Below are positions 2,966 to 46,204 of a stretch of 64,000 nt of DNA, piece by piece. Numbering within the stretch: position 1 is the first letter of the stretch; each line of letters opens with the position of its first letter. The translations under genes were made by a program, and so were the position numbers. The notes beneath the pieces were generated by a model. The model had not been told where the DNA came from. It worked only from the letters and a program-made list of their open reading frames with translations, and searched no databases. Source of the stretch: an uncultured Bacteroidales bacterium (GTDB taxonomy: Bacteria; Bacteroidota; Bacteroidia; Bacteroidales; VadinHA17); the NCBI GenBank assembly GCA_963840965.1, contig CAWJAW010000009.1, positions 256,487 to 320,486 on the forward strand, read 5' to 3'.

Positions 2966-2996
2966 GCCAGGTCAAAAGCCTGGCTTTTATTTTTTT
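2966..2996. terminator. hairpin plus T-run between divergent/convergent genes
   Basis: GCCAGG-TCAAAAG-CCTGGC followed by TTTTATTTTTTT on the + strand. It lies immediately 3' of trpS (minus strand), where it reads as an A-run plus hairpin, so orientation and function are ambiguous. Confidence 0.3.
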
Positions 2997-3988
2997 CAGA
3001 AAGGCTTGTAGCCAATAAGTTCCCTGACTTCTCTGACGGTGCGTGCCGCGCTTTCCCGGGCTTTTTCCCCGCCTTCCCTGACCACTTTTGCAAGATACTC
3101 ATTATCTGCAAGTATCTCGTTCAGTTTTTCGCGAATAGGAGTCAGTGCAATTATAATATCTTCAGCAAGTTGTTTCTTGAGGTCTCCGTAACGTATTTCG
3201 CAGGAGGCATGCTTTTCGCGGAAATGATCAACGACCTGTTTTTCCGACACGACCTCCAGTATTGTGAACAGGTTCTTTACCGGTTCCGACATAGCCTGTC
3301 GCATTTCAGTCGGACCTGCATCGGTGACTGCGCTCATTACCTTTTTTCTTATCGCCTGCGGAGTATCTGACAGATAGATGCCGTTGCCTTCGCTCTTCCC
3401 CATTTTCCCGCTTCCGTCGAGTCCCGGGATCTTGATCAGCTCCATACCGAAATTATAGGCATCGGGTTCCGGAAAGTATTCAACTCCGTATATGGAGTTG
3501 AACCGTCTGGCAAAACGCCTCGTCATTTCGAGATGCTGCTCCTGGTCCTTTCCCACCGGAACCTTGGTTGCCTTATGGATTATAATATCCGCAGCCATCA
3601 GTACGGGGTAAGTTAGCAAACCGGCGTTAATATTGTCGGGATGTTTCCTTATTTTTTCCTTGAATGAAGCAGTGCGTTCCAGTTCTCCGACATAAGCGTT
3701 CATATTAAGGAGCAGGTAGAGTTCCGAGACCTCGGGAACATCGCTCTGGATAAAAAGGGTGGCTGCTTCCGGGTCGATTCCGCATGCCAGGTATTCAGCC
3801 AGCACCTGCTTTATGTTTCCATGAAGGTCGTCGGGTTTGGGATGAGTAGTAAGGGCATGATAGTCGGCTATGAAGAAGTAGCATCTGTTCTCCTTCTGCA
3901 TTTTTATAAAGTTTCTTATCGCACCGTAATAATTCCCCAGGTGAAGTTTCCCTGTCGATCTGATCCCGCTCACAACTGTTTCCATCAT
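2996..3988 (-). CDS. trpS: tryptophan--tRNA ligase
   Basis: Class I motifs HLGNYYG (HIGH-like) and KMGKSEGN (KMSKS). A TrpS-like N-terminus MMETVVSGIRSTGKLHLGNY starts at 3988. The ORF itself extends to 4054. Confidence 0.9.
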   Translation of the reverse strand: MMETVVSGIRSTGKLHLGNYYGAIRNFIKMQKENRCYFFIADYHALTTHPKPDDLHGNIKQVLAEYLACGIDPEAATLFIQSDVPEVSELYLLLNMNAYVGELERTASFKEKIRKHPDNINAGLLTYPVLMAADIIIHKATKVPVGKDQEQHLEMTRRFARRFNSIYGVEYFPEPDAYNFGMELIKIPGLDGSGKMGKSEGNGIYLSDTPQAIRKKVMSAVTDAGPTEMRQAMSEPVKNLFTILEVVSEKQVVDHFREKHASCEIRYGDLKKQLAEDIIIALTPIREKLNEILADNEYLAKVVREGGEKARESAARTVREVRELIGYKPF

Positions 3989-8414: not shown

Positions 8415-8652
8415 TGGGAGAAAAGGAGAAGGGGAGAAGAGGAGAGAATGAATTAACTCCGTGAGAATCTGTGATTAACTCCGTGTTACTCCGTGTTTAA
8501 CATCTTGATAACCAGCGGTTATATTTGTATGACCACGTGGTTGAAGAACCCCCTTTTGGGGCAGGGGGTAAAACAGGCAGGGGGGTGAAACGGTTTCAGG
8601 GAGTCTCTTCGTCTCCCCTTCTCCCCTTCTCCCCTTCTCCCCTTCTTTCCTC
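8415..8652. repeat. inverted purine-rich/pyrimidine-rich arms enclosing AACTCCGTG modules and a GC palindrome
   Basis: GGGAGAAAAGGAGAAGGGGAGAAGAGGAGAGAA (8415-8447) faces (CCCCTTCT)x4 within 8604-8652. The interior has AACTCCGTG x3 and CCCCCTTTTGGGGCAGGGGGTA (8549-8570). Confidence 0.8.
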
Positions 8653-17040: not shown

Positions 17041-17955
17041 ATGTCAATTGTAGTACAGGGCGTTACAAAGCTATATGGCAGTCAGAAAGCCCTCGATAAT
17101 GTTTCGTTTGAGATAAAGACAGGCGAGATCGTCGGATTTCTCGGTCCCAATGGTGCGGGCAAGTCGACCATGATGAAGATCATCACCGGCTTCATGCCCC
17201 CTACATCGGGAAAGGTGTTTGTGAACGGCATTGATACAGCCGGCGGGTCGCTCGAGATCAAGAAGAGGATCGGCTATCTGCCCGAAAACAATCCTCTCTA
17301 TCCCGAGATGTATGTAAGGGAATACCTTAAGTTTGCTGCCACACTGTACAAATCAGTACTTCCCGTAAAGGATCAGATTGACAACATCATAAAGATTACC
17401 GGGCTGGAGCCGGAGCAAAAAAAGAAAATAGGTTCACTTTCTAAAGGCTACCGTCAGAGAGTTGGTCTGGCGCAGGCTCTTATTCATAATCCCGATGTGC
17501 TGATACTGGACGAAGCCACCACAGGTCTAGATCCGAACCAGATAGTTGAGATAAGGAATCTCATCCGGGATGCCGGGCAGGAAAAGACAGTAATGCTGTC
17601 CACTCACATAATGCAGGAAGTAGAAGCGATCTGCGGCAGGGTGATTATCATCGACAAGGGAGTCATAGTGGCCGATGAAGAAAAGAGTGACATCTATTCG
17701 AAGATCAGCAGGGCACGGCAGACCATCCTGGTGGAGTTTGACAGGGATACAGATGAAGCTCTCCTGAGTGCGATCCCCGGAGCCGGAACGGTCAGAAAGG
17801 CAAAGGACAGGATCTGGATAATCGAGGCGCCGGGTGAAGCCGATGTCCGTCCGGCAATATTCTCATTTGCAGTCAGTAACAATCTTACAGTGCTGTCGCT
17901 TCAGAAACAGGAAAGCAATCTGGAGGAGGTGTTCAGGATGCTGACTAAGGCGTGA
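17041..17955 (+). CDS. gldA: ABC transporter ATP-binding protein, GldA-like
   Basis: Walker A GPNGAGKST, signature LSKGYRQR, Walker B LILDEATTGLD. N-terminus and length match the gliding-motility GldA as I recall it. The symbol is tentative. Confidence 0.75.
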   Translation: MSIVVQGVTKLYGSQKALDNVSFEIKTGEIVGFLGPNGAGKSTMMKIITGFMPPTSGKVFVNGIDTAGGSLEIKKRIGYLPENNPLYPEMYVREYLKFAATLYKSVLPVKDQIDNIIKITGLEPEQKKKIGSLSKGYRQRVGLAQALIHNPDVLILDEATTGLDPNQIVEIRNLIRDAGQEKTVMLSTHIMQEVEAICGRVIIIDKGVIVADEEKSDIYSKISRARQTILVEFDRDTDEALLSAIPGAGTVRKAKDRIWIIEAPGEADVRPAIFSFAVSNNLTVLSLQKQESNLEEVFRMLTKA

Positions 17956-17966
17956 GGGCATGAATG

Positions 17967-18011
17967 TCTTGCAAGTCGTGCAGGTCATGCAGGTCGTGCA
18001 GGTCGTGCAGG
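17967..18011. repeat. 9-nt tandem array (GTCKTGCAR) x5
   Basis: gtcttgcaa gtcgtgcag gtcatgcag gtcgtgcag gtcgtgcag. Confidence 0.9.
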
Positions 18012-18021
18012 CTTTGCACTT

Positions 18022-18122
18022 CGTAGCTTTCTTTGAACACCGTAGCTTTAGCGAAGGTGTTAGCGAAGAAGTGTCATTTCTCTGCGAAAACTCTGCGGTT
18101 TTCCTCTGCGAAACTCTGCGAG
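18022..18122. repeat. dispersed composite element; inverted copy at 43467-43592
   Basis: The reverse complement of 18022-18068 matches 43467-43513 at 46/47 positions by hand alignment. 18080-18122 is similar to the reverse complement of 43551-43592. Confidence 0.85.
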
Positions 18123-18292
18123 AAATTCTTGTTTTTCTAGCTTCTTTTTCCTTCCTTTGCCCCTCAGAATATGGTGGAGAAATTTGAGCTGATTGCAACC
18201 ACAGGAAAAAATGCTAAAATGCCTCTGATCCCGTCTTTCCAGTCAACCATTATTCCCACCAAATGTTGATATGTTAACTTAACAATTAAGAT

Positions 18293-19639
18293 ATGGGTTA
18301 TCTATTTACATCCGAATCAGTTTCGGAAGGGCATCCTGATAAGGTTGCCGATCAGATATCAGACGCTCTTCTTGATGAGTTCCTCAAGTGGGATCCCGAA
18401 TCAAAAGTGGCATGCGAGACTTTTGTAACGACCGGTCTTGTCCTTTGCGGCGGGGAAGTCCGCACCGAAGGCTGGGTCGATGTTCAGGAGACGGCGCGCC
18501 GCGTTATAAGGGAAATCGGCTATACAAAGGCCGAATACAGGTTCGACTGCGATTCGTGCGGAGTGATTTCCACAATTCATGAGCAGTCGCAGGACATCCG
18601 ACAGGGAGTTGACAGGGAAAAGCCCGAGGATCAGGGAGCCGGCGACCAGGGCATGATGTTCGGCTTCGCATGCCGCGAGATGGACAATTACATGCCTCTC
18701 AGCATCGAACTGGCTCAGACTCTTCTGAAGCAGCTTGCCGCGATCAGGAAAGAAGGGAAACAGATGAAATACCTCAGGCCCGACAGCAAATCGCAGGTTA
18801 CCATTGAATACGATGACAACAACAAACCTGTCAGGATCGACACCATAGTCATCAGCACCCAGCACGATGAATTCGTTCTTCCCGAAAATAAATCTGCAAA
18901 GGCAGCTAAAAAGGCCGAGCAGGAAATGCAGAATAAGATAAAGGATGATCTGAAGAAAACCCTGCTTCCCCGGGTCAAAAAGCTTCTCCCTAAAGAAATT
19001 GGCAAACTCATCAATGACGATGTGAAGCTACTGGTCAACCCTACGGGCAAGTTCGTTATCGGCGGACCTCACGGGGACACCGGGCTCACGGGCAGGAAGA
19101 TCATAGTCGACACCTACGGCGGACATGGAGCTCATGGCGGAGGCGCTTTTTCAGGGAAAGATTCATCTAAAGTCGACAGGTCGGCAGCCTATGCCGCCAG
19201 GCATATCGCCAAGAACCTGGTGGCTTCGGGAGTCTGCGACCAGGCACTGATCCAGATAGCATATGCAATCGGGGTGGCACAGCCGGTTGGGCTTTATGTA
19301 AACACTTACGGAACGGCAAAGGTAAAGGACAAGAAAGACAGGATACTGCACGACAGCGAGATAGCAGCCGTGCTGAATAAGCTGTTCGACCTCAGGCCTT
19401 ATTCAATTGTTGAACGTTTCGGACTGAAGAACCCGGTGTTCCTTTCTACAGCAACCTACGGTCACTTCGGACGCATCAATGAAACCAGGGAGGTAGAGGT
19501 TTACTACCCTGTCAAAGACTCAAAACCTGTCGGAACCAACGGAAACGGCAAGGAAGTCTATAGAAAGAAAGTTGAGTTCTTCGCGTGGGAGAAGCTGGAT
19601 TATGTTGACAGGATAAGGAAGGCGTTCGGGTTGGTTTAG
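18293..19639 (+). CDS. metK: S-adenosylmethionine synthase
   Basis: [25 protein letters not shown].., [42 protein letters not shown]. Carries a Lys-rich insertion. Confidence 0.95.
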
Positions 19640-19662
19640 TTTTACAGGTCTTGCAGGTCAGT

Positions 19663-19694
19663 ACGACTTGCACGACTTGCACGACTTGCACGAC
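19663..19694. repeat. 9-nt tandem array (ACGACTTGC) x3.5, inverse of the 17967 array
   Basis: acgacttgc x3 plus acgac. The reverse complement is GCAAGTCGT. Confidence 0.9.
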
Positions 19695-24343: not shown

Positions 24344-24381
24344 TATTCAGGTTATACACCTTTTGCCGTTCAACTTCCTTT

Positions 24382-24512
24382 TACCCCCTGCCCCCCAAGG
24401 GGGGTTCTTCTTGCCCCCCTTGGGGGGTTGGGGGTTAGCCACCACTCCGGGGGGTTGAGGGAACTGTTTGTTGTTGATGACTCACATCCCATTGCACCCA
24501 CCCCCTGCCCCC

Positions 24513-24520
<8 letters not shown>
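24382..24520. repeat. GC-rich palindrome cluster
   Basis: TACCCCCTGCCCCCCAAGGGGGG (24382-24404), CCCCCCTTGGGGGG (24414-24427) and CCCCCTTAGGGGG (24508-24520, overlapping the hom stop). Confidence 0.85.
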
Positions 24521-27068
<2,548 letters not shown>

Positions 27069-27201: not shown

Positions 27202-27294
27202 TTACTGCCCCATGCCCATAGGCATGAGCGGCTTTTGAAGGTCCTGACTGATCTGAAAAAAATGTTTCATTGTCATAGTGTTCATTTTTATCAT
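27202..27294 (-). CDS. candidate Met-rich upstream ORF (30 codons)
   Basis: MIKMNTMTMKHFFQISQDLQKPLMPMGMGQ has 7 Met in 30 residues. The first AUG lies inside the 3' strand of riboswitch helix P1 (GAUGAUAA). There is no homology evidence. Confidence 0.3.
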   Translation of the reverse strand: MIKMNTMTMKHFFQISQDLQKPLMPMGMGQ

Positions 27295-27397
27295 CTCCCG
27301 TTTTGCCGGGATTAGGTTTTGGCACCTTTCTCCCGATTGGCCGGGATTGGTTGCCAGGGTTTCACAGAGCCTAATCTCTCCGCCCTTCTTAATAAAA
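27286..27397 (-). promoter_or_regulatory. SAM-I (S-box) riboswitch
   Basis: The minus strand reads UUAUUAAGAAGGGCGGAGAGAUUAGGCUCUGUGAAACCCUGGCAACC-AAUCCCGGCCAAUCGGGAGAAA-GGUGCCAAAACCUAA-UCCCGGCAAAACGGGA-GAUGAUAA. This matches the S-box core (GGnGGAGnGA, UGAAaCCC, GGCAACC, GGUGCYAA) with P1-P4 pairings. It lies upstream of metY-hom-metH-metF. Confidence 0.8.
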
Positions 27398-27439
27398 ATC
27401 AAACACCCTTAAATGGAAGGAATATTTGATTTGTGGCCA

Positions 27440-27470: not shown

Positions 27471-27475
27471 AAAAC

Positions 27476-27579
27476 GGTACGCGGTATGCGGTACGCGGTA
27501 TGCGGTACAGCGGTATGCGGTATGCGGTATGCGGTACGCGGTATGCGGTATGCGGTATGCGGTACGCGGTAAGCGGTAA
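27476..27579. repeat. 7-nt tandem array (GGTAYGC) about x14
   Basis: ggtacgc/ggtatgc units run without interruption apart from one 8-nt unit. This is the left arm flanking the four-helix-bundle gene. Confidence 0.9.
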
Positions 27580-27628
27580 GAAGTACAAAGGTTGGTGACC
27601 TGCTGGTTAATTTCCAAAAGAAAATTCC

Positions 27629-27982
27629 TTACTTTTTTCTTGATAAGATTAACCTTGTTAGCATCGATGATATTTTATCGCATTCATCAACCAGTTGTTC
27701 CTGAGTTGACTTATCAACATATCCAATTTCAGATGCTATGATAAGCTGAGTCATCAGTTCAGCGGTAGATCCTTTTGCAATAAATAAGTATCGTATTGAA
27801 AGTCTGTTCGATCCCGATTCGTCTCCTTCAGCAATATTGCTGGAAATACTAACAGCGGCTCTTTGAATCTGATCCCTGAATCCAAAATCTCTCTTAAAAA
27901 ATTGATTTTGTGTTAGTTTATAGATCTTAACGGCAAGATCCCTGGCAATTTGCCAAACCTTAAGTTCCATGAAGTTTCCCAT
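27629..27982 (-). CDS. four-helix-bundle protein (23S rRNA intervening-sequence protein / S23p / Avd-like family)
   Basis: ELKVWQIARDLAVKIYKLT..FGFRDQIQRAAVSISSNIAEG....YLFIAKGSTAELMTQLIIA is the hallmark pattern of this family. 117 aa. Confidence 0.85.
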   Translation of the reverse strand: MGNFMELKVWQIARDLAVKIYKLTQNQFFKRDFGFRDQIQRAAVSISSNIAEGDESGSNRLSIRYLFIAKGSTAELMTQLIIASEIGYVDKSTQEQLVDECDKISSMLTRLILSRKK

Positions 27983-28065
27983 GATGCAGCGATTTAAAGA
28001 TTAATAAATTAATTAGCACGATATCCAAATATAATAAGAAACTTCACGCCGAGTACCACGCACAT

Positions 28066-28165
28066 CTTAATTCTTACCGCGTACCGCGTACCTCTTAACT
28101 CTTACCGCGTACCGCACACCGCGTACCGCGTACCTCTTAATTCTTGCCGCGTACCGCGTACCGCT
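28066..28165. repeat. higher-order array built on CGCGTACC (inverse of GGTAYGC)
   Basis: Three units of CTTAAYTCTTRCCGCGTACCGCGTACC(T). This is the right arm flanking the four-helix-bundle gene. Confidence 0.9.
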
Positions 28166-28218: not shown

Positions 28219-29688
28219 ATGCAACACTTATTATCGATCTACAACAGCCTTACCCGGCAAAAAGAAATCTTTGAGCCTCTTCACCCGCCTTTTGCGGGGA
28301 TGTATGTCTGCGGACCAACGGTTTACAGCAACGCTCATCTCGGACATGCACGTCCTGCGATAACCTTCGACCTGCTGTTCCGTTACCTGTCGCATCTGGG
28401 ATACAGGGTGAGGTATGTCAGGAATATAACCGATGTGGGTCACCTCGAGAATGATGCCGATGAAGGTGAGGACAAGATTGAAAAGACAGCAAGGCTTCAG
28501 AATCTCGAGCCCATGGAAGTGGTTCAGAACTATATGAACACCTTTCACAAGAACATGGATCAGCTCAACACCCTTAAGCCTTCGATCGAGCCAAGGGCAT
28601 CGGGACATATCATCGAACAGCAGGAATTCATCAGGCAGCTGCTGGATAAAGGCTATGCCTATGAAGTGAACGGATCGGTATATTTTGATGTTGAGAAGTA
28701 TAACAAGCAGTACAGGTACGGCAAGCTTTCGGGAAGGATACTCGAGGACCTGATGGCAAATACGAGGGTACTCGAGGGACAGCAGGAGAAACGCAATCCG
28801 GTTGACTTTGCCCTCTGGAAGAAGGCCACTCCGGAGCATCTCATGAGATGGCCTTCGGAATGGAGCGCAGGATATCCCGGCTGGCACCTCGAATGCTCGG
28901 CGATGAGTATTAAATATCTCGGGGATGTTTTCGATATACATGGCGGAGGGATGGATCTCCAGTTCCCGCATCACGACTGCGAGATAGCGCAATCGACGGC
29001 TGCACTTGGAAAGGAATCAGTAAGGTACTGGGTTCACAATAACATGATCACCATCAACGGCCAGAAGATGGCCCGTTCGCTGGGTAATTTCATCACACTC
29101 GACCAGTTCTTCAGCGGCGATCACCCCCTGCTCGAACAGGCTTTCAGTCCGATGACAGTCAGGTTCTTCATCCTTCAGGCGCATTACCGCAGCACGCTCG
29201 ATTTCTCGAACGAAGCCCTCGGGGCAGCCGGGAAGGGATACCAGAAGCTGATGAAAGCCATTGAGACACTCAACACCCTTAAACCCACCGCCAATCCCAC
29301 CGTGGATGTTAAAGATCTATCCTTAAGATGCTCCGAAGCAATGAATGACGACCTCAACACACCCATTCTTATCTCGCACCTTTTTGACGGAGTAAGGATC
29401 ATCAATTCCGTGAATGACGGAACGGAGACGATTGACGAGAAGGGTATCGAATCACTCAGGAAAATTTTTGATAATTATGTATTTCAGATTCTGGGGCTCA
29501 GGGACGAGACAAAAGACACCAAGTCCGATGATCTTGCAGATGAACTAATGAAGATAATCATTGATCTCCGTCAGGACGCCAGAACCAAAAAGGATTTCGG
29601 CACATCAGATAAGATAAGGGATGAACTGAAAAAAGCAGGTATTATCCTTAAGGATATGAAAGAGGGGGTCAGGTGGTCAATGGAGTAG
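28219..29688 (+). CDS. cysS: cysteine--tRNA ligase
   Basis: [18 protein letters not shown] (HIGH), KMARSLGN (KMSKS), and Zn-binding residues in [19 protein letters not shown]. Confidence 0.95.
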
Positions 29689-30272
29689 AAACGGATCCCC
29701 TCCTCGGAGGGGTTGGGGGTGGGTTAAGACAATGTGAGAGTGAGAGCGGGAGTGAGTAGAAAAACGTAATGGTAAACGGATCCCCTCCTCGGAGGGGTAG
29801 GGGTGGGTTAATAGTTATTATATAAATAATTATATGTCAAAAAAACGCAAAATCATCCCATATAATCCGGAACTTAAAGACCTGGCAAGTCAGCTCAGAA
29901 AGAATATGACTCTTTCAGAGGTTTTGCTCTGGATCGAGCTGAAAAATAAACAAATTCTTGGTTATGATTTTGACCGTCAGATTCCAATTGGGGATTACAT
30001 TGTCGATTTTTATTGCAAGGATTTAAGTCTGGCCGTTGAGATTGACGGGGATACTCATATATTCAAGTACGACGATGATGAGGTGAGGCAAAAGAATCTG
30101 GAGAAACTGGGTGTTCATTTTCTGAGATTTGAGGATATTGAGGTAAAAAAGAATATGGGGAATGTTCTGAGGGTTATTGAGGATTGGATTGAAAGAAGAA
30201 GACCCACCCCTACCCCTCCAAAGGAGGGGATCCTTAGAGAACCCACACCGAGCCCTCCAAAGGAGGGGATCC
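29689..30272 (+). mobile_element. DUF559-endonuclease mini-cassette bounded by duplicated terminal inverted repeats
   Basis: Left side: AAACGGATCCCCTCCTCGGAGGGGTWGGGGTGGGTTAA x2 (29689-29727, 29774-29811). Right side: the inverse copies ACCCACMCCKASCCCTCCAAAGGAGGGGATCC x2 (30202-30233, 30241-30272). The DUF559 ORF lies between them. Confidence 0.55.
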
Positions 30273-31795
30273 TTAGAGGACATATTTCTGCACCTGTTTT
30301 TGTTGGAAAACTTGCCATTGGCGGCACAAATCCTATCCGTATTCAGTCAATGACCAACACCGACACTCTCGACACCAAAGCCTCCGTTGCACAATGCATC
30401 AGAATAATTGAAGCCGGTGCCGACCTGGTGCGCCTTACTGCCCAGGGGATGAGGGAGGCGGCTTATCTTGCAAACATTAAAGCGGAACTGAGGAAGGCCG
30501 GATTTGAGACACCGCTTGTTGCGGATATTCATTTCAATCCCTCGGCCGCTGAACTTGCAGCAAGTATTGTCGAAAAGGTAAGGGTTAATCCGGGTAACTA
30601 TGCCGACAAGAGAGCATCATTCATAAAAGTGGAGTTCTCCGAACAGGAATACCGCGAGGAACTCGAAAGGATACACAAAAGGATATTGCCGCTTATCAAC
30701 ATATGCCACGAACACGGTACGGCTGTAAGGATAGGGGTCAATCACGGTTCACTGTCCGACAGGATAATGACCCGCTATGGCAACACCCCCGAGGGGATGG
30801 CAGTGTCGGCAATGGAATTCATAAGAATATTCCGGGCGGAGAATTTTCATAAGCTGGTACTGTCGATGAAATCGAGCGATACCGGCATAATGATAAAGTC
30901 TACCCACCGTTTGGTTGAGATGATGAAGGAGGAAGGATTCGCGTATCCTCTTCACCTGGGAGTGACCGAGGCAGGCGAAGGTGAGGATGGAAGGATAAGA
31001 TCATCGGCCGGCATCGGAGCGCTGCTGGCTGAAGGTATTGGCGATACTATCAGGGTTTCGCTGTCGGAAGCTCCCGAGAAAGAGATACCGGTGGCAAGGG
31101 AAATCCTGAATTTCCTTGCAGGTTCAGCCGGACGGGTAACAGATCCTGACAGCATCCTTGATTTCAAAACACACACTAAGCCATATAAGCCGGAAGTGGT
31201 GACTAATAATGACGGCATGTTTTCAGGAGAAGAAAATCAATGTTATAACAATGTTATAACGTTGTCAAAAGACAGTTTACCGCCTCCAGATATATTTAAA
31301 TATGAAGATGTTATCCTGAACGGAGAATTCAACGAGGATAACCCGGAAAAGCTGGCAATCGACTCAGCCGCCCTTCTTGGAAGATACTTCATCACACGTC
31401 AGGCTGGCGGAATATGCATCACGAACAAGGGAAAAATCAAAGGAGACAAGCTGAAGGAGCTTTCATTTTCAATTCTGCAGGCAACCGGAGCAAGGATTAC
31501 AAGGGTGGTTTATCTGTCATGTCCCACCTGCGGCCGGACCAGGTTCGATCTTCAGGAGGCGGTGAGGGAGGTGAAGGCTGTAACCGGTCACCTGACAGGA
31601 CTGAAGATTGCAGTGATGGGATGCATAGTGAACGGTCCGGGCGAAATGGCCGATGCGGATTACGGATACGTTGGGGCGGGGAACGGGAAGGTGCATATCT
31701 ACCGGGGAACAACCCAGGTGTTAAAGAACATTCCGCAGGAATCGGCTGCTGAAGCTTTACTGGCTCTTATTGAGAATGATCAGAGAGCGACGTGA
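29834..31795 (+). CDS. ispG: in-frame fusion ORF: N-terminal DUF559 (Vsr-fold endonuclease-like) domain + 4-hydroxy-3-methylbut-2-enyl diphosphate synthase
   Basis: Residues 1-125 (LRKNMTLSEVLLWIELKNKQILGYDFDRQIPIGDYIVDFYCKDLSLAVEIDGDTH..LRFEDIEV) are DUF559. The linker PTPTPPKEGILREPTPSPPKEGILRG is a translated repeat. Then IGGTNPIRIQSMTNTDT...GCIVNGPGEMADADYGYVG is IspG with the long Bacteroidota-type insert. There is no ATG/GTG/TTG between the repeat and the IspG core. Confidence 0.85.
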   Translation: MSKKRKIIPYNPELKDLASQLRKNMTLSEVLLWIELKNKQILGYDFDRQIPIGDYIVDFYCKDLSLAVEIDGDTHIFKYDDDEVRQKNLEKLGVHFLRFEDIEVKKNMGNVLRVIEDWIERRRPTPTPPKEGILREPTPSPPKEGILRGHISAPVFVGKLAIGGTNPIRIQSMTNTDTLDTKASVAQCIRIIEAGADLVRLTAQGMREAAYLANIKAELRKAGFETPLVADIHFNPSAAELAASIVEKVRVNPGNYADKRASFIKVEFSEQEYREELERIHKRILPLINICHEHGTAVRIGVNHGSLSDRIMTRYGNTPEGMAVSAMEFIRIFRAENFHKLVLSMKSSDTGIMIKSTHRLVEMMKEEGFAYPLHLGVTEAGEGEDGRIRSSAGIGALLAEGIGDTIRVSLSEAPEKEIPVAREILNFLAGSAGRVTDPDSILDFKTHTKPYKPEVVTNNDGMFSGEENQCYNNVITLSKDSLPPPDIFKYEDVILNGEFNEDNPEKLAIDSAALLGRYFITRQAGGICITNKGKIKGDKLKELSFSILQATGARITRVVYLSCPTCGRTRFDLQEAVREVKAVTGHLTGLKIAVMGCIVNGPGEMADADYGYVGAGNGKVHIYRGTTQVLKNIPQESAAEALLALIENDQRAT

Positions 31796-35906: not shown

Positions 35907-37688
35907 ATGAACGGAAAGATCAAACTATTCAGGAAAGCCCTGGCCCTTGTCTATGACAGCGCGCCCGGGTGGGCCACGGTGAACATCGTGATCTCGGTCC
36001 TGCAGAGCATTTTTCCCCTTGCCCTTGTCTGGCTGATTAAGCTTCTGATAGATGAAATTACCAATGCTGCTCAAGCCGGCACGGGAGCGGTCAATATAGT
36101 GCCGATGGTGATCGCAGTGGTAGTCGTTTACTTCCTGGATGAGGTATGTTCCGATTCGGGCAACTTTGTGCGCAGCAAGCAGTCGGTGAAACTCGAGGGA
36201 TATATGTACAACCTGCTTCACTCGAAAGCTGTGAGGCTCGACCTTATCAACTTTGAGCATCCCGGATATTACGACTGTCTGTCGAGGGCAACATCCGAAG
36301 CTCCATGGAGGCCAAACAACATACTGAACAACATAGTATCGATGTTCCGGGGATTGCTGTCGCTGCTGCTGATGGCCGGACTTCTGTTCACCCTGCACTG
36401 GGGGGTTGCCCTGATGCTGCTGGTGGTGAACATTCCGGGGATATGGCTCAGGCTGCACTATGCCGATATTCTTTATAACTTTCAGAGGGAACAGACACCC
36501 GAAGCCAGAAAGTCGGCGTATTTCAGCTGGCTCCTTACCGGCGACAGGCCTTCAAGAGAGATCAGGCTGTTCGGGTTGGGTAACTACTTCATCTCGCTGT
36601 TTAAGAAATCCTTTAACAGGCAGAAGGAAGAAGAACTGAACATCCTCAGAAAAAGGACAGTTATTGAACTGATATCGGATGTGGTCAAGGCTTCCGCAAT
36701 ACTTGTACTGCTCCTGGTGATAGCCAGGCATACGGTTTCGGGAGATCTCAGTCTTGGACAGATGGCCATGTTCCTGCTGGCATTCAGGCAGGGTATGACC
36801 TACATAAAGGATCTGTTCGTTTCGGTGGCCGGGCTTTATGAAGACGGGCTGTATATAGGCGACACATTCGAATTCCTCGATCTGAAGGAAAGCGTAGTGG
36901 CCAATCCGCCGGTCACGGTTCCCACTGAGCTGAAATCGGAGATCAAAGTTGAAGATATTTCGTTCACCTATCCCGGGAATGACTATGCAACCTTAAACAA
37001 GGTTTCGTTTGAGATAAAGAAGGGTGAGATAATTGCGCTGGTTGGTCCCAACGGAGCCGGGAAAAGCACCCTTGTGAGGCTGCTCACCCGTCTTTACGAT
37101 CCGGATACAGGCAGTGTGAGATGGGACGGAAATGATATTAAAACAATGGATCCTGATCAGTTCAGACTTTTCTTTTCGGTTGTTTTTCAGGATTTCATGC
37201 TATATAACCTTCCGGCCGGGGAGAACATCAGGATGGGAAATATTGATGCACCGGACCCGGATGAAAAGATCAGGAAGGCTGCCGCAAACTCGGGTGTTCA
37301 TGAACTTCTGAACAATCTGCCGAAGGGCTACGACACCACAATCGGGACCCTCTTTGACGACAGCAGGGAGCTGAGCTGGGGCGAATGGCAAAAGATAGCG
37401 CTTGCGAGGGCCTTGTTCCGCGAGTCGCCGGTTCTGATCCTCGATGAACCCTCCAGTTCGCTCGATGCGGATACGGAGCATGAGATATTTAGCCGTTTCA
37501 GGGAGATAGTCAACGGACGTACCTCCATTCTTATAACTCACAGATTTACCAATGTAACCCTGGCTGACAGGATAATTGTGCTGGAGCACGGAAGCATAAC
37601 GGAAACCGGATCGCATGAGGAGTTGATGAAGATGAAGGGGAGATATTGGGAGATGTTTAGGAAGCAGGCGGGTAGGCATGGGGCGTGA
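35907..37688 (+). CDS. ABC exporter, fused permease/ATPase (MsbA/McjD-like architecture)
   Basis: Six-TM N-terminal half. Walker A GPNGAGKST, signature LSWGEWQKIALARA, Walker B ILDEPSSSLD. About 593 aa. Confidence 0.85.
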   Translation: MNGKIKLFRKALALVYDSAPGWATVNIVISVLQSIFPLALVWLIKLLIDEITNAAQAGTGAVNIVPMVIAVVVVYFLDEVCSDSGNFVRSKQSVKLEGYMYNLLHSKAVRLDLINFEHPGYYDCLSRATSEAPWRPNNILNNIVSMFRGLLSLLLMAGLLFTLHWGVALMLLVVNIPGIWLRLHYADILYNFQREQTPEARKSAYFSWLLTGDRPSREIRLFGLGNYFISLFKKSFNRQKEEELNILRKRTVIELISDVVKASAILVLLLVIARHTVSGDLSLGQMAMFLLAFRQGMTYIKDLFVSVAGLYEDGLYIGDTFEFLDLKESVVANPPVTVPTELKSEIKVEDISFTYPGNDYATLNKVSFEIKKGEIIALVGPNGAGKSTLVRLLTRLYDPDTGSVRWDGNDIKTMDPDQFRLFFSVVFQDFMLYNLPAGENIRMGNIDAPDPDEKIRKAAANSGVHELLNNLPKGYDTTIGTLFDDSRELSWGEWQKIALARALFRESPVLILDEPSSSLDADTEHEIFSRFREIVNGRTSILITHRFTNVTLADRIIVLEHGSITETGSHEELMKMKGRYWEMFRKQAGRHGA

Positions 37689-37875
37689 GGCGTGAGTCGT
37701 GAGGCGTGAGACGAAGGGACGAAGAGACGGAGGGACGAAGGGACGGCGTGAGTCGTGAGGCGTGAGGGAGTAAAGCCAGGCTCAGGGCTCAGGGCTCAGG
37801 GCGCAGGGTTCGGCTGAAGGGGAGATAACTCCGTGTTACTCTTTTTTTACTTCGTGCGACTCCGTGTTTAAACTC
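37682..37875. repeat. mosaic of 7-8-nt tandem arrays
   Basis: (GGCGTGAG/TCGTGAG)n, (ACGAAGGG/ACGGAGGG)n, GGCGTGAG again, (GGCTCAG)x3-4, then the AACTCCGTG..ACTCCGTGTTTAAAC module. The first unit supplies the ABC exporter's TGA stop. Confidence 0.9.
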
Positions 37876-38270: not shown

Positions 38271-38441
38271 GATAGGTGTTTGCAATAAGGTTTTACGGGT
38301 ACGTCTCGCTGCCAATATCCTCGTACCTGGTTAATCCGTTCAAAGCGGATGGGTCGCCCTGACCCCTCGGGTCCCCGGAGTTCGCTGATTTTCCTCCGGG
38401 GATCTTCTATTCGTCGTGAGGGGTGAGGCGTGCGACAAAAG

Positions 38442-38480
38442 GTCATGCAGGTCGTGCAGGTCTTGCAGGTCGTGCAGGTC
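38442..38480. repeat. 9-nt tandem array (GTCNTGCAG) x4
   Basis: gtcatgcag gtcgtgcag gtcttgcag gtcgtgcag gtc. Same family as 17967 and 44697. Confidence 0.9.
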
Positions 38481-38570
38481 ATTCTCAAAAGCTGACAGAT
38501 GTTAGTGATTTTCTGCCAACTGGTTAGTGGTTGCCTTTACGCCGTAATGCCTTTACGCCTTTGCGCCTTC

Positions 38571-39129: not shown

Positions 39130-39245
39130 TAACCCTGGCTTTAAAGCCAGGGTTTGAGCAGCCAGGGTTTGAGCAGCCAGGGTTAGGCAGCCAGGGTTAG
39201 GCAGCCAGGGTTAGGCAGCCAGGGTTAGGCAGCCAGGGTTATACA
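39130..39245. repeat. perfect 24-nt palindrome followed by a 14-15-nt tandem array x7
   Basis: AACCCTGGCTTTAAAGCCAGGGTT (39130-39153). Then GCCAGGGTTTGAGCA x2, GCCAGGGTTAGGCA x4 and GCCAGGGTTATACA x1 (39146-39245). Confidence 0.9.
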
Positions 39246-39311: not shown

Positions 39312-39752
39312 TCAGGTCTGACTATTATACTGGGTGAAGCCGTGTTGCCTGATATACTCCTCGCACTCCTGATCCCAGGTTTTCGATCTGTGATGAGATT
39401 CCTGATTACGGATATAGTTCCTTACTCTGTTGATGTGTGATTCGCTGATCGAGGCGGCATAGTATTCGTCGGCCCACTCGAATCTGGTTTTGATAAGCTG
39501 GATCTTGTTTATCCAATGTGCGGATTCCCCCTTGATCAATTGCATCACTTTCGACAGCGCCTGATCACAGCCGAGCATAAGCAGACAGTGAAGGTGTTCG
39601 GTGTGTCCGTTCAGGAAATCAATATGTATGTCTTTCGAAGCTGCATTGGTACGGATGTGGTTTATCACTTCATACTTCCTTCCGGGATAGAGGCAAGGTA
39701 CCCGGTTTTTGGTGCCCCACACGCAGTGGATCCAGATTTTTACGTAGGACAT
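39312..39752 (-). CDS. IS200-like Y1 (HUH) transposase / REP-associated tyrosine transposase-like
   Basis: IWIHCVWGTKNR.., HUH motif in GHTEHLHCLL, catalytic Tyr context RVRNYIRNQESHH. 146 aa. No IS605-type tnpB partner. Confidence 0.85.
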   Translation of the reverse strand: MSYVKIWIHCVWGTKNRVPCLYPGRKYEVINHIRTNAASKDIHIDFLNGHTEHLHCLLMLGCDQALSKVMQLIKGESAHWINKIQLIKTRFEWADEYYAASISESHINRVRNYIRNQESHHRSKTWDQECEEYIRQHGFTQYNSQT

Positions 39753-43885: not shown

Positions 43886-44296
43886 CTACTTACCTGTATT
43901 ATTTTTCTGGTCTATCAGCAATTCTATCTTTTCGATAAGTATTGCGACAGGCTGGAAAAGCGGCATTGTTTTTTCCTGATCAAAATCAAAGAAATCACCG
44001 TAGTCTCCCTTTTGTCTCCAGTCAAAGAGTTCAACGAAAAGCCTGCCTGATTCCTTATCAATCAATCCAGTTTTAATAAAATGAAGAGTGAATTGATGCT
44101 TCAGTCCTGCATGTGAGCTTGCATAAATATCAAATTTATAAAGAAGAGCTGATATAGCATAGAAGCAAGAATAATATAGTCTGTTGATTGAAGAATTCCA
44201 ATGTCCGTTTGTTGCAAGCAGTTTAGCAGCCTCCAGAGTCTCCCTGGAGATTTTCAAACGATAGCTGATGTAATCCGGATTTATTGATCGGGTCAT
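43886..44296 (-). CDS. HEPN domain protein (toxin-like partner of MNT)
   Basis: 136 aa, helical. ..INRLYYSCFYAISALL.. and WRQKGDYGD, an HEPN R-x4-6-(H/Y)-type motif. Overlaps the upstream NTase by 4 nt. Confidence 0.8.
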   Translation of the reverse strand: MTRSINPDYISYRLKISRETLEAAKLLATNGHWNSSINRLYYSCFYAISALLYKFDIYASSHAGLKHQFTLHFIKTGLIDKESGRLFVELFDWRQKGDYGDFFDFDQEKTMPLFQPVAILIEKIELLIDQKNNTGK

Positions 44297-44610
44297 AACC
44301 TGACACCTTCTCTTTTAATAGTCCGATAGAGAGGAGTTACCTTATGTAAGCTATTCCAGACCTGTTTCTGGTAAACGAAAGTAGAAAATACTTCACCTGT
44401 CTCGATCTCAATTTCAAAAAGACTATTCCGAAATGATCTTTCGATTTCCGTCGATACAGCATATTGTGTCAGGATCAGAATGTCCCAGTCAGATTCATTC
44501 CTGGCATCACCCCTGGCCCGCGAACCAAAAAGTATGACCTGAGCTTTAGGATCAATGATCTTAATGCTGCTTTTAATCCGCTTTAATATTTCGTCGTTTT
44601 TGAGGGTCAT
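44293..44610 (-). CDS. minimal nucleotidyltransferase (MNT) domain protein
   Basis: ILFGSRARGDARNESDWDILIL matches the GSxxRG...DxD pol-beta NTase motif. 105 aa. Confidence 0.85.
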   Translation of the reverse strand: MTLKNDEILKRIKSSIKIIDPKAQVILFGSRARGDARNESDWDILILTQYAVSTEIERSFRNSLFEIEIETGEVFSTFVYQKQVWNSLHKVTPLYRTIKREGVRL

Positions 44611-44742
44611 AATGCAAATCTACAAAATAAATGGATTGGCTGAATGGATGAAACCACTTATCGCTGATTTTAAGGCGACAAGGCGTGAAAGAGGAGAGGT
44701 CGTGCAGGTCATGCAGGCGCAGGTCAAGCAGGTCGTGTTAAA

Positions 44743-44886
44743 GTGATGCGTAAACCCCGAGCGTAGCGTCGGGGCAAGTCACCGGATTCATAAAACTCCG
44801 TGTTACTCCACAGATAAATTATTGAATATCAATAATTAACTCCGTGTTCCTCCTTTCTTAACTCCGTGCGACTCCGTGGTTAACTC
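44743..44886 (+). repeat. ~143-bp element, right direct repeat flanking HEPN-MNT
   Basis: GTGATGCGTAAACCCCGAGCGTAGCGTCGGGGCAAGTCA..CATAAAACTCCGTG..ATTATTGA..AACTCCGTGCGACTCCGTGGTTAAC. Confidence 0.8.
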
Positions 44887-44915
44887 CTTGCGACTCCGTG
44901 GTTAAAGAACCCCCT

Positions 44916-45635
44916 TCAAGGGGCAAAGGTTCTTACAACTGCATCCTTAATTGAGATTTTACCGGCGCCAAGCGAATTGTCCGATCCCAGGAGAAAATCA
45001 TTTGCAATTGTTGTGATGGATCTGCCTAACTGATCAATATCGACCGGCCTTATATGCCAGTCAGATTTCTGAAAAAGAAAAACCGGGAAGCTTTTAATAC
45101 GTTGTTCCACGTCAATCTCGTTGATTATTGCCTTGTTTTTAGCTTCGCCGAAAACCTCCATCCAGTTAAAGCTGTAGTTCTGAGATATCATGCATATATC
45201 AAAGACATCCTTTGGTTCATCGCGGCTGACAACAGCTGTAAGCTTATTTGTCAGTATATTAAGAGGTGTATCTATAAAACCATATTCATATTTATTGGCG
45301 ACACCACACCTGTAAGCAGTATCATTTACAAATTCAATCTTAAGCGCTCCTTCTTCGTCTTCAATATAAAAACGAACAAAATCCTCGTAAATAGTGCTTT
45401 GTTCCTTTAGCAGCGAAACTTGTCTTGCCAGGACTGTCTCAATATCCTTTACAAGAACATGAAACTCATGACTTTTATTCAGAAAAAAATACAGATCCTC
45501 ACTGAAGCGGTGGTTGAGATAAAATCTCCCCAGTGCAGTCCCGCCGGTCAGGTAAAAGTTACCAATTACCGGCTTCAAAGCCTGAAGCACCTTATCCTGC
45601 GTCCGGTAAAGCCTCCTGTAATCTTTTCCTGACAT
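44916..45635 (-). CDS. AbiEii/AbiGii-family nucleotidyltransferase toxin-like protein
   Basis: FYLTGGTALGRFYLNHRFSEDLYFF matches the family's N-terminal motif (GGTAL...RxSxDlDf) as recalled. Confidence 0.75.
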   Translation of the reverse strand: MSGKDYRRLYRTQDKVLQALKPVIGNFYLTGGTALGRFYLNHRFSEDLYFFLNKSHEFHVLVKDIETVLARQVSLLKEQSTIYEDFVRFYIEDEEGALKIEFVNDTAYRCGVANKYEYGFIDTPLNILTNKLTAVVSRDEPKDVFDICMISQNYSFNWMEVFGEAKNKAIINEIDVEQRIKSFPVFLFQKSDWHIRPVDIDQLGRSITTIANDFLLGSDNSLGAGKISIKDAVVRTFAP

Positions 45636-46168: not shown

Positions 46169-46204
46169 GACCGCAAGACTGCAGGACCGCAAGACTGCAA
46201 GACC
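46169..46204. repeat. 16-nt tandem repeat x2.25
   Basis: GACCGCAAGACTGCAR x2 plus GACC. Inverse relative of 31811-31846. Confidence 0.8.

Follow-up and report, generated by a model that had tools for sequence, protein, structure and literature searches.

How can an essential enzyme be made from a gene that has no start codon of its own? The question is raised by ispG in the stretch of DNA analysed here, 64,000 nt (64 kb) from an uncultured Bacteroidales bacterium, referred to below as the window. IspG carries out the penultimate step of the MEP isoprenoid pathway, which we take to be the sole isoprenoid route of this organism. In the window its coding sequence runs on without interruption from that of a small DUF559 nuclease gene bracketed by inverted GC-rich elements (arms). 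The features of the locus, numbered from the first nucleotide of the window, are as follows:

28219..29688 (+): cysS (cysteinyl-tRNA synthetase), the conserved upstream neighbour; Pfam tRNA-synt_1e, E 7e-104; cysS-ispG synteny is found whether or not a cassette is present
29689..29727 (+): outer left arm, AAAC-GGATCCCCTCC-TCG-GAGGGG-TT-GGGGGTGGGTTAA, a 7-bp GC hairpin followed by a G-block
29728..29773 (+): spacer between the left arms, GTGAGA-rich; the relative L163 has the same spacer type
29774..29811 (+): inner left arm, 97% identical to the outer left arm over 30 nt
29812..29833 (+): AT-rich leader TAGTTATTATATAAATAATTAT, preceding the DUF559 ATG
29834..30196 (+): DUF559 (Vsr-like PD-(D/E)XK) nuclease domain, codons 1-121; Pfam E 1e-27
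30155..30157 (+): Met108 ATG, the last canonical in-frame start before the IspG core
30197..30235 (+): inner right arm, an inverse copy, translated RRPTPTPPKEGIL
30236..30274 (+): outer right arm, an inverse copy 87% identical to the inner right arm, translated REPTPSPPKEGIL
30275..31795 (+): ispG (GcpE) without its own start codon, beginning RGHISAPVFVGKLAIGGTNPIRIQSMTNT.., with the stop at 31793-31795
29834..31795 (+): single ORF of 653 codons, running from DUF559 through a repeat-encoded linker to IspG

A first-pass annotation, made from the letters alone, had described a DUF559 ORF with two left arms and two inverse right arms, the left repeats starting right behind the cysS stop. Both points were borne out: the four arms lie at the coordinates listed, and the cysS TAG stop (ending at 29688) directly abuts the first left arm. 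The two left copies share the core GGATCCCCTCC-TCG-GAGGGG-T(T/A)-GGGG(G)TGGGTTAA and recur with a period of 85 nt, which is not divisible by 3, and the inner copy has an 18-nt exact inverted match to 30202-30219. The right arms, of 39 nt each, show 79-85% complementarity with the left ones across 27-33 nt. Other copies of the arms, which the same annotation proposed to count, were not found outside the cassette within the 64-kb window; the hairpin core CCCTCC-N2-5-GGAGGG occurs four times, always at the DUF559 cassette (0.01 expected from shuffles). No target-site duplication was seen at the arms, which are flanked by AAAC on the left and TTAG on the right (TAGAAAC/GGATCC... and ...GGATCC/TTAGAGG, the slash marking the junction). 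A related but different hairpin array is located at 24380-24530 of the window, and a Y1_Tnp (IS200-like) gene at 39312..39749 lies beside a different repeat array.

The right arms had also been read as PTPTPPKEGILRE/PTPSPPKEGILRG passing into IspG with no stop and no ATG, GTG or TTG, and the ORF and Pfam matches agree with this reading. The only in-frame ATG/GTG/TTG codons of the fused ORF are codons 1, 25, 31, 84 and 108, and neither such a start codon nor a stop was found between Met108 and IQSMTNT. The absence of a separate canonical ispG start is thus confirmed, Met108 being the last candidate before the IspG core. Exact look-up returned no record of the window's 653-aa protein.

Both parts of this ORF match known protein families. 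The N-terminal part matches DUF559 (PF04480), a large family of unknown function, over aa 14-117, scoring 96.6 bits where the gathering cut-off is 20.6 and covering profile positions 3-106 of 109. Retention of the PD-(D/E)XK catalytic residues, a check suggested at the outset, was observed: the motif D58 / E69-x-D71-G / H75 / R98 is intact in the window protein and, among 37 homologues, E69, D71, G72, H75 and R98 are invariant and D58 nearly so. The stretch VDFYC...VEIDGDTH aligns with VDFMC...VEADGGQH of PDB 3HRL (sequence match E 7.5e-13). Foldseek with the DUF559 model (pLDDT 84) also retrieved 3HRL (TM 0.83), together with the catalytic domain of I-Bth0305I, 3R3P_B (TM 0.65/0.80, E 8e-4, probability 1.00). 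The protein consists of the catalytic domain only, without an extra DNA-binding domain, and its dN/dS is about 0.04-0.17. Among the PADLOC defence-system models, one 17.7-bit match to a methyl-directed REase model was obtained, which is not meaningful. A review of the PD-(D/E)XK superfamily places DUF559 together with Vsr and I-Bth0305I (PMC3424549).

The C-terminal part matches GcpE (PF04551) over aa 154-647 with E 7e-119, the match spanning profile positions 3-342 of 343. An alignment of 50 sequences shows no variation at the Fe-S ligands C563, C566, C597 and E604, and ispG pN/pS is about 0.15. In the AlphaFold model, two confident domains are predicted, with pLDDT >90 from residue 150 on and <50 for the linker, residues 125-148. 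DUF559 and GcpE were the only Pfam families reported on the fused ORF, and no Hint/intein family was among them. An N-terminal passenger domain need not inactivate IspG, since active recombinant E. coli IspG has reportedly been made as an N-terminal maltose-binding-protein fusion.

To locate the start of translation, we scored candidate codons with a start-context model built from the 31 presumed starts of the window and scored in-sample. The ATG at 29834 obtained 8.45 and is the most start-like of the candidate codons: none of the 262 ATGs inside the long ORFs of the window scored as high, and among the 31 presumed starts it ranks at the 93rd percentile. Transcription signals were also sought. 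No intrinsic terminator was found between cysS and ispG. In 9 fused loci, the Bacteroides -7 box TAnnTTTG was absent from the whole region that starts 150 nt ahead of the DUF559 ATG and ends at the ispG 5' end. A sigma-70-type promoter scan, a model unsuited to Bacteroidetes, gave three weak matches where 1.3 were expected. The only known RNA families detected were two SAM riboswitches, both elsewhere in the window. These sequence features point to ATG 29834 as the most likely start, from which IspG would be made as a nuclease-linker-IspG protein.

The other canonical candidate downstream of the nuclease core is the ATG at 30155 (Met108). Were IspG mainly made from it, the product would be of 546 aa with a leader of ~41 residues, composed of the last nuclease helix and the linker, and separate translation of the same mRNA, beginning at 29834, would supply the nuclease. 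Initiation in Bacteroidetes does not use Shine-Dalgarno pairing, an A-rich stretch, GTAAAAAAGAAT, precedes this ATG in all fused loci, and local folding around it is weak (-6.6 kcal/mol compared to a presumed-start median of -7.2), all of which would suit initiation there. However, its context score of -1.38 lies at the 6th percentile of presumed starts and is unremarkable among internal ATGs. Moreover, the ATG and its A-rich context are equally kept in unfused members, and are not specific to the fusion, because they encode the VKKNM of the nuclease. Ribosomes initiating at 29834 would in any case read through, so that the full-length protein would still be made. We therefore regard initiation mainly at Met108 as unlikely, though it retains roughly one chance in a handful.

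Initiation at a non-canonical codon, located either within the right arms or immediately behind them, perhaps following RNase III cleavage of the arm stem, would make continuity with DUF559 irrelevant. Near-cognate in-frame codons are indeed present past Met108 (ATC 30230, ATC 30269 and ATT 30284). As RNA, the arms pair outer with outer and inner with inner around the nuclease ORF (MFE -220.5 kcal/mol, z -6.7), in the same geometry as ORF-bearing rRNA intervening sequences. Nevertheless, near-cognate starts are generally inefficient, and the codon at the 'YIS' position is ATT, ATA, ATC, GTC or GTT across fused loci, so that no start-like codon is conserved there. The right-arm region is also GC-rich and structured, unlike the start sites of the window. 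Variable arm positions gave no significant left-right covariation (identical spacers in 3/20 compared to 1.1 expected, p 0.08; loops p 0.41). This speaks against pairing being under selection, and a pure pairing function of the arms is for this reason not favoured. Such a start is accordingly improbable, and ATG 29834 is retained as the preferred start below.

Is the cassette a newcomer? The first-pass annotation had viewed it as an insertion that captured the 5' end of ispG and proposed a search for an empty site. Such sites were found in outgroups, where cysS and ispG are adjacent without a cassette and 4 nt apart (L069: TAG + 4 nt + ATG). Since the window also lacks the native start of its relatives, the part of the claim stating that the cassette took over the ispG 5' end stands. 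A recent or unique event is not supported: the order cysS-DUF559-ispG is found in at least 20 loci of one Bacteroidales subclade, and the nuclease gene is under purifying selection. DUF559 pairs have a median pN of 0.129 and a median pS of 0.762. Between the window and its nearest fused relative, L163, DUF559 shows dN 0.024 and dS 0.66, and ispG of the same pair pN 0.052 and pS 0.60. Compared to all other copies, including those at other loci, the window's DUF559 shows pS of 0.69-0.86, L163 (pS 0.44) excepted. The sole high-identity DUF559 copies result from local tandem amplification (97%); in L167, the whole cassette is amplified in tandem to 4 copies. These sequence comparisons indicate that the cassette has long resided in the cysS-ispG spacer throughout the subclade, passed on by vertical inheritance, and that DUF559 is as strongly constrained by purifying selection as ispG, with which it has diverged in parallel.

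Several observations would nonetheless fit a recent insertion of an active mobile element, either a free-standing homing endonuclease or a TIR transposon, onto the ispG start in this genome. The homing endonuclease I-Bth0305I has a similar catalytic domain (TM 0.80), inverted arms flank the gene, and similar cassettes occur at other genomic sites (L086/L089/L105, L098, L111-L114). Presence also varies among close relatives. L162, with the closest IspG (91% identity), is empty: it has lost the cassette and kept a repeat remnant in the leader, and is not a simple arm-to-arm deletion product. L001 (IspG 86%) carries another cassette at the cysS-ispG site, with a different repeat-flanked gene of family PF05635. 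Against such a recent arrival, comparisons between copies, at other loci as well as at this one, show saturation at synonymous sites (L163 again excepted), the window copy co-diverges with ispG, and the same locus is occupied in the at least 20 lineages mentioned above. The lack of a visible target-site duplication, of other arm copies in the 64 kb and of an additional DNA-binding domain also speaks against it, as does the virtual absence of the DUF559 family from viral contigs. We consider this explanation highly unlikely and keep to that of a resident cassette. A phage origin of the DUF559 gene was likewise considered and rejected, as one distant match (36% identity) was obtained in 2.9 million viral contigs.

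Three states were observed at the orthologous site. In unfused relatives with a native ispG start, the protein begins M-x5-6-(I/L)(T/S/N)PYIS..IG (MxxxxxxTPYIS), which is absent from the window. In others, ispG has its own ATG followed by a repeat-encoded leader, as in L129 (MNDKPTPNPSREGSQKKYIT), L095 and L054, the latter with an ATG in each repeat. The third state is the fusion. The junction EG(S/N)-x-(K/R)(K/R)-YIS is common to the leader and fused forms, and the outer right arm of the window corresponds to the repeat-encoded IspG leader of relatives. In nearly all close homologues, the first right arm encodes the C-terminal tail KPTPxPSxEGN of the nuclease. The number of right arms in fused loci is 1, 2, 3, 4, about 6 or about 17.

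Among the best 120 database matches (JGI, ENA, NCBI, Logan), 36-37 distinct clusters are full-length fusions of DUF559 to IspG. They are scattered over the IspG tree, on which the fused state needs at least 27 changes by neighbour-joining; this tree is poorly resolved, and its 120 sequences were picked by score and are enriched in fusions. Sequence relationships of this kind imply that the fusion arose or reverted many times. Its route is likely a deletion between repeat copies already in one frame and not a new insertion: because the right-arm leader shares its frame with the DUF559 tail, deletion between copies would automatically give an in-frame fusion. IspGs beginning 'MTNT...' (482-489 aa) were considered as start-less unfused genes, for which a different mechanism would have been needed, and rejected, as the two loci inspected, L164 and L165, proved to be gene-calling artefacts.

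As repeats are error-prone in assembly, the window fusion could in principle be a sequencing or assembly artefact, the true sequence having a stop and a start. Of the two loci just named, L165 has a GTG start and L164 is a fused locus in which a 1-nt indel breaks the frame; the latter is a nanopore contig. In contrast, the start-less in-frame form is found in many independent short- and long-read assemblies with differing repeat numbers. The same architecture is present in L163, L083, L082, L081, L088, L096 and L054, and L163 agrees with the window codon for codon around the junction. A missed stop or frameshift had been named beforehand as the observation that would overturn the fusion, and none appeared in any independent fused assembly. 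The flanking repeats, too, are present in the relatives that share the N-terminal extension. An artefact is thus extremely unlikely, the least probable of the explanations considered, and the fusion is taken as real in what follows.

Taken together, these results are best explained, and in our judgement probably so, by a resident, vertically inherited DUF559 cassette in which recombination between arms produced an in-frame fusion, with IspG most likely translated from ATG 29834. The cassette comprises one small nuclease gene with, on each side, at least one inverted 38-42-nt element made of a 7-bp CCCCTCC/GGAGGGG hairpin and a GGGGTGGGT block. It may have entered the original 4-nt cysS-ispG spacer in an ancestor of the subclade and been inherited vertically thereafter. 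The nuclease ORF would normally read through the first right arm to give the KPTPxPSxEGN tail and, in part of the clade, a right-arm copy would have become the first ispG codons in the same frame. Deletion or unequal recombination between copies could then remove both the DUF559 stop and the ispG start, giving the state of the window. The recombination in the window itself is not reconstructable base by base, and ispG copies were judged within the 64-kb window. With translation starting inside the nuclease ORF, most likely at ATG 29834, the predicted 653-aa product would consist of a folded nuclease, a disordered repeat-encoded linker of ~25 Pro/Thr/Ser/Glu/Gly residues and a normal IspG. We propose that the fusion is a tolerated by-product of recombination-prone arms and not a designed bifunctional enzyme.

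What the nuclease acts on is suggested by the arms. All close loci share the blocks CCCCTCC, GGAGGGG and GGGGTGGGT and differ in the loop and the 3-nt spacer; blocks of the left arm are kept 10-25 nt upstream of every close DUF559 family member. Distant DUF559 genes (48-62% identity) bear their own variant hairpin arms, for example TGTCCCCTTGAGGGGAC; flanking inverted hairpins exceeded all shuffles in 12/37 distant family members. This pairing of each DUF559 gene with its own hairpin arms points to a likely substrate, and recognition of its own arms would be the most likely role of the nuclease.

The open-access papers and preprints searched contain no account of a cassette built in this way, and among the listed papers that mention DUF559 none deals, by title and abstract, with repeat-flanked cassettes or IspG fusions. 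More speculatively, and with clear reservation, DUF559 and its inverted hairpin/G-block arms might represent an undescribed nuclease-plus-repeat class, a PD-(D/E)XK counterpart of RAYT/REPIN. By acting on the arms, the nuclease might then cause arrays to grow and shrink, cassettes to duplicate and neighbouring start regions to be invaded. As one frame of the arms is open, such a system could time and again give new N-termini to the essential genes beside it (ispG here, rnpA in L122), and it would be retained through fusion and not through a toxin-antitoxin mechanism. If so, the fused nuclease would be impossible to lose without a compensating mutation.

In dozens of natural lineages, translation of the essential IspG appears to depend on the frame in which a nuclease gene is read. 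Fixation of an accessory gene by such a route is unusual, and a two-domain protein of 653 aa is predicted from it. The arrangement also creates an annotation pitfall, as the output of gene callers includes 'fusion proteins' of DUF559 and IspG, IspGs cut short to 'MTNT...' and low-complexity tails encoded by the repeats, all of which call for careful interpretation. Other repeat-flanked mini-cassettes in the same genome, such as that of a four-helix-bundle gene, suggest that these may be a general, undescribed feature of intergenic regions in these Bacteroidales.

The cassette can be compared with several known systems. JGI labels the homologues 'very-short-patch-repair endonuclease', and Vsr does share the PD-(D/E)XK subgroup and the fold. 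In structure, however, 1VSR is weakly similar (E 0.12, TM 0.42/0.39), and the Pfam Vsr model (PF03852) gave no match at E 0.001 or better, DUF559 and a sub-threshold MTES_1575 alone being reported. No Dcm-type cytosine-5 methyltransferase gene was seen beside DUF559, whose neighbours are cysS and ispG in all of the at least 20 loci, and we know of no flanking hairpin arrays for vsr. With I-Bth0305I (EDxHD/Vsr-like), the catalytic fold is shared, as noted above for 3R3P. Like free-standing homing endonuclease genes, the DUF559 gene is small, wedged between conserved housekeeping genes and absent in some relatives. It differs from them in having neither an intron/intein context nor an additional DNA-binding domain, and in its lack of recent spread, as judged by its pS to copies other than L163; homing endonuclease genes are not known to carry inverted repeat arms.

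As in inteins, the nuclease domain shares one frame with an essential protein, so that loss of the frame would cost the host that protein. In contrast to inteins, DUF559 is N-terminal and not internal, a Hint/splicing domain is lacking, nothing suggests removal of the nuclease from IspG, and the fusion is facultative among relatives. The 23S rRNA intervening sequences, in which an S23p/four-helix-bundle ORF lies within inverted repeats forming an RNase III stem, resemble the cassette in that a small ORF sits inside inverted repeats able to form a long transcript stem. Genes of this same S23p family (PF05635) also occur in equivalent repeat-flanked cassettes, nearby at 27629..27982 of the window and at the cysS-ispG site of L001. 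The DUF559 cassette is located instead in an mRNA spacer, its arms do not covary at variable positions, and processing is only conjectural.

A parallel in layout is offered by RAYT/REP (REPIN) systems, in which inverted REP hairpins lie on both sides of a single-copy gene for an IS200-like tyrosine transposase. Here, the enzyme is a DUF559 PD-(D/E)XK nuclease and not an HUH/Y1 transposase, and the arms are translated and are not dispersed in the 64 kb. In both systems, nevertheless, a small nuclease-type gene has inverted GC-rich hairpin copies on both sides, is a vertically inherited resident that does not jump, and is accompanied by arms whose sequence shifts together with the protein across the family.

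The cassette, a DUF559 gene with its inverted arms (hairpin plus G-block elements), lies between cysS and ispG, and its features in the window are as follows.

28219..29688, plus strand: cysS (tRNA-synt_1e, E 7e-104), with TAG as stop codon
29689-29727 and 29774-29811: left arms, two direct copies, AAACGGATCCCCTCCTCGGAGGGGT(T/A)GGGG(G)TGGGTTAA
29834..31795, plus strand: fused ORF, 653 aa, with a DUF559 domain at residues 14-117 (E 1e-27) and a GcpE/IspG domain at residues 154-647 (E 7e-119)
30197-30235 and 30236-30274: right arms, two inverse copies, 39 nt each

The cysS stop, two left arms and two inverse right arms match exactly those described in the first-pass annotation, and the first left repeat unit directly abuts the cysS TAG. 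Right and left arms show 79-85% complementarity over 27-33 nt. In the 64-kb window, the hairpin core CCCTCC-N2-5-GGAGGG has four occurrences, always at the cassette (0.01 expected). Canonical in-frame start codons of the fused ORF are codons 1, 25, 31, 84 and 108. A codon scan of 29834..31795 agrees with the in-frame DUF559-IspG fusion claimed earlier: no stop codon lies between the two parts in the window frame, nor is any ATG, GTG or TTG present in this frame from Met108 (ATG 30155) to IQSMTNT.

With canonical codons alone, IspG synthesis must start at ATG 29834 or ATG 30155. In a start-context model built on 31 long window ORFs, a small training set scored in-sample, ATG 29834 obtained 8.45, above all 262 internal ATGs, and ATG 30155 obtained -1.38 (6th percentile of presumed starts). 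Around Met108, the A-rich context is set by the conserved nuclease sequence VKKNM and is identical in unfused relatives. Between DUF559 and ispG, no terminator was found by scanning and no Bacteroides-type -7 box separates the two; across fused loci, the junction carries ATT, ATA, ATC, GTC or GTT, with no conserved near-cognate codon. Modelling of the complete ORF with AlphaFold (pLDDT 83.8) gave a confident nuclease domain, a linker (pLDDT below 50 at residues 125-148) and, from residue 150, a confident IspG. E. coli IspG with maltose-binding protein fused to its N-terminus has been obtained in active form, so a passenger domain at this end does not necessarily abolish activity. Taken together, IspG is very probably translated from a start within the DUF559 ORF, and ATG 29834 is the somewhat favoured candidate.

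The protein is a bona fide DUF559 member. Among solved structures, the nearest in sequence is 3HRL, a Neisseria gonorrhoeae DUF559 protein (E 7.5e-13), whose VDF...VExDGxxH motif is kept. The catalytic residues whose presence the first-pass annotation had left to be checked are in place: among 37 homologues E69, D71, G72, H75 and R98 are invariant and D58 is nearly so. The AlphaFold model of DUF559 (pLDDT 84) matches 3HRL (TM 0.83) as well as the homing endonuclease I-Bth0305I in its catalytic domain (3R3P; TM 0.80, E 8e-4), with a weak structural match to E. coli Vsr; these matches agree with the placement of Vsr, DUF559 and I-Bth0305I in one group (PMC3424549). Purifying selection on the DUF559 gene is strong (median pN 0.129 versus pS 0.762 between pairs; dN 0.024 and dS 0.66 between the window and locus L163 of a relative). 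For ispG, the first 150 codons of the same two loci gave pN 0.052 and pS 0.60. The nuclease of the cassette thus looks functional, as predicted from conservation and modelling.

Searching with the DUF559 part retrieved upwards of 2,000 homologues, about 75% identical at best. The usual homologue has 133-135 aa, and its C-terminus, KPTPxPSxEGN, is translated from the first right arm; longer ones carry multiple units of this type or an N-terminal extension across the left arms. In 30 of 30 close loci, a left element lies 10-25 nt 5' of the ATG and an inverse copy 3' of the domain, multiple copies being common on either flank, with the consensus (A/T)TCCCCTCC-N2-4-GGAGGGG-N2-5-GGGGTGGGTT(T). Three blocks of the element are conserved between loci while the loop and a short spacer vary, and no loop/spacer covariation was detected between proximal left and right arms (3/20 versus 1.1 expected, p 0.08). 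Mere pairing fits this pattern less well than a sequence-specific recognition motif does. Distant DUF559 genes (48-62% identity, marine and other metagenomes) carry their own arm variants, such as TGTCCCCTTGAGGGGAC plus AGGGGTGT, indicating that protein and arms change together; in 12 of 37 the arms scored beyond all shuffles. One such gene, on TARA marine contig L122 (2920-3801), with 59% identity to that of the window and inverted arms of its own (TTGTCCCCTTGAGGGGACCT), shares its reading frame with rnpA (Ribonuclease_P, E 1.7e-19). The rnpA ATG is missing where expected (..DNFNISFPKKEKL) and the only upstream ATG is at the end of the nuclease domain, which places the right arm inside the RnpA leader.

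The empty site sought from the outset was found in relatives. In outgroup L069, the cysS TAG is followed after 4 nt by the ispG ATG, with no cassette, and L004, L012, L021, L028 and L079 resemble it; the ancestral arrangement is, as judged from these outgroups, cysS adjoining ispG. The order cysS-DUF559-ispG was observed at at least 20 loci of the cassette-bearing subclade, in three states. In state A (L056, L084, L092, L093, L097, L100, L101, L106/L108, L110 and L167), the DUF559 ORF ends past its arms and the start of ispG is native, M-x5-6-(I/L)(T/S/N)PYIS(S/T)xVxIG. In state B (for example L129, MNDKPTPNPSREGSQKKYITPVVNIG, and L095), ispG keeps its own ATG and a right-arm repeat, in frame with the nuclease tail, supplies its first codons; many database proteins have an N-terminus of this type, MKNNLN..SPSQGDHRGS... 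State C (the window, L081, L082, L083, L088 and L096) is a single DUF559-ispG ORF without intervening ATG, GTG or TTG. L163 is state C but for one TTG within the IspG core, 14 codons 5' of IQSM. L054, from a Microflora Danica MAG, is a single ORF too, yet each of its approximately 17 right arms (2007-3060, 63-nt unit, ..AKMIKPTPDHSQEGNPKEDNP..) contains an ATG, the expanded arms giving a 1064-codon DUF559-repeat-IspG ORF.

The junction EG(S/N)-x-(K/R)(K/R)-YIS is common to states B and C, in which nuclease tail and IspG leader are one repeat in one frame. A deletion between two right-arm copies would therefore take out the DUF559 stop together with the ispG start, and could have generated the fusion with the frame kept automatically. 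Fused loci carry 1, 2, 3, 4, about 6 or about 17 right arms. In L167 (1590-4110 of a 178-kb Microflora Danica nanopore contig), four tandem cassettes with a period of 573 nt and 97% identical proteins lie between cysS and an unfused ispG, with six left arms ahead of the first copy and three right arms behind each. From such variable counts and tandem cassettes, the arms look recombination-prone.

The closest IspG (L162, 91%) also has no cassette: TAG is followed by 7 nt, then ATGACCTCAGGAGGGAGCC..., and its leader is still similar to the last arm. L001 (IspG 86%) carries at precisely the same site a different cassette, in which an unrelated repeat forms inverted arrays around a 23S_rRNA_IVP four-helix gene and the ispG ATG comes directly after the last repeat. 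A third kind of small gene is found in L002, a Rikenellaceae MAG locus, where a 62-aa HicB-like antitoxin ORF (2788-2976, E 1e-14) lies between cysS and ispG and the likely ispG ATG is within its 3' end, in a different frame. These differing inserts mark the cysS-ispG junction as a hot spot for small accessory genes.

Among the best 120 matches to the full 653-aa query, 36-37 distinct 90%-identity clusters are full-length DUF559+GcpE proteins (638-804 aa, 60-84% identical), most without Met between nuclease residue 110 and IQSM. Their sources are assemblies of JGI, ENA, NCBI and Logan, with contigs as long as 468 kb. On a rough neighbour-joining tree of 110 IspG sequences, a score-selected sample enriched for fusions, the fused state is scattered (at least 27 changes by Fitch parsimony). 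Despite the rough tree, several close fused/unfused sister pairs, such as the window and database protein P0254 or P0241 and P0295, show repeated transitions between the two states. About 40% of loci inspected at the DNA level are fused, some relatives' contigs being nanopore assemblies with indels (L164).

In the RNA fold, outer left pairs with outer right and inner with inner, enclosing the nuclease ORF (MFE -220.5 kcal/mol, z -6.7), the same stem-around-ORF geometry as in ORF-bearing rRNA intervening sequences. Such pairing is an automatic outcome of any inverted repeat and, since the arms do not covary, selection for it is unsupported. Recognition by the nuclease of its own arms, as in RAYT/REP pairs, would fit the conserved blocks, the arms co-varying with the protein across the family and the unstable arrays. 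Synonymous sites between cassette copies at different loci are saturated, with no sign of recent spread, no target-site duplication is visible around the window cassette, and viral contigs contain almost no member of the family. The other arm copies that the first-pass annotation proposed to count did not appear, the 64-kb window containing no solo arm outside the cassette. Recent mobility is, on these grounds, unsupported.

Other repeats and cassettes occur in the window. A second mini-cassette (27475-28164) just upstream of cysS includes a gene for a 117-aa 23S_rRNA_IVP four-helix bundle (27629..27982, minus strand, E 3.6e-34), of the same family as that of L001, between about 15 heptamers CGGTA(C/T)G (27475-27578) and inverse TACCGCG-type repeats (28049-28164). 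At this position, L163 (177-572), L087, L088 and L092 have a second, divergent DUF559 gene (41-47% identity, measured in the last three). Related GC hairpins plus G-block form an intergenic array with no gene (24380-24530; units GCCCCCC-TT-GGGGGG-TTGGGGGTT and ACCCACCCCC-TGCCCCC-TTA-GGGGG-TTTGGGGGTT), which could be a remnant left by a lost cassette or a sister repeat family in solo form. An IS200-like Y1 transposase gene (39312..39749, minus strand, 145 aa, Y1_Tnp E 4.6e-23) adjoins a 14-nt tandem array (AGCCAGGGTTAGGC x 6.8, 39145-39241), possibly a RAYT with REP-like repeats. Inverted 9-mer arrays flank metK (18293..19636; region 17947-19694), GTCGTGCAG-type at 17947-18024 and ACGACTTGC at 19663-19694, with a SAM-II riboswitch upstream of the gene (18168-18227). 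The gene for a Cys/Met-metabolism PLP enzyme (25721..27022, minus strand) has a SAM (S-box) riboswitch upstream of it (27285-27398, minus strand, 70.7 bits). A HEPN (43886..44293) and minimal nucleotidyltransferase (44293..44607) pair and an AbiEii-like nucleotidyltransferase toxin gene (44916..45632), all on the minus strand, form a small toxin-antitoxin/defence cluster (43886-45632) with repeat arrays at its borders. Further intergenic tandem arrays are at 8452-8646, 37674-37808, 38440-38482, 44704-44905 and 46169-46204.

Several known systems were considered for the cassette. Vsr was rejected, there being no Vsr HMM match and no linked methyltransferase, as were a RAYT because of the wrong fold and an intein because no Hint domain is present; nor did the cassette pass, when tested, as an active homing endonuclease or a transposon. 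Among the listed papers of the accessible literature that mention DUF559 (22 of 25), titles and abstracts describe no repeat-flanked cassette or IspG fusion; the fusion proteins are already in databases, labelled simply IspG. In its working, the cassette is closest to RAYT/REP, a resident nuclease with its own repeats. In contrast to RAYT/REP, the repeats of the cassette are translated and have absorbed the start of the essential gene ispG.
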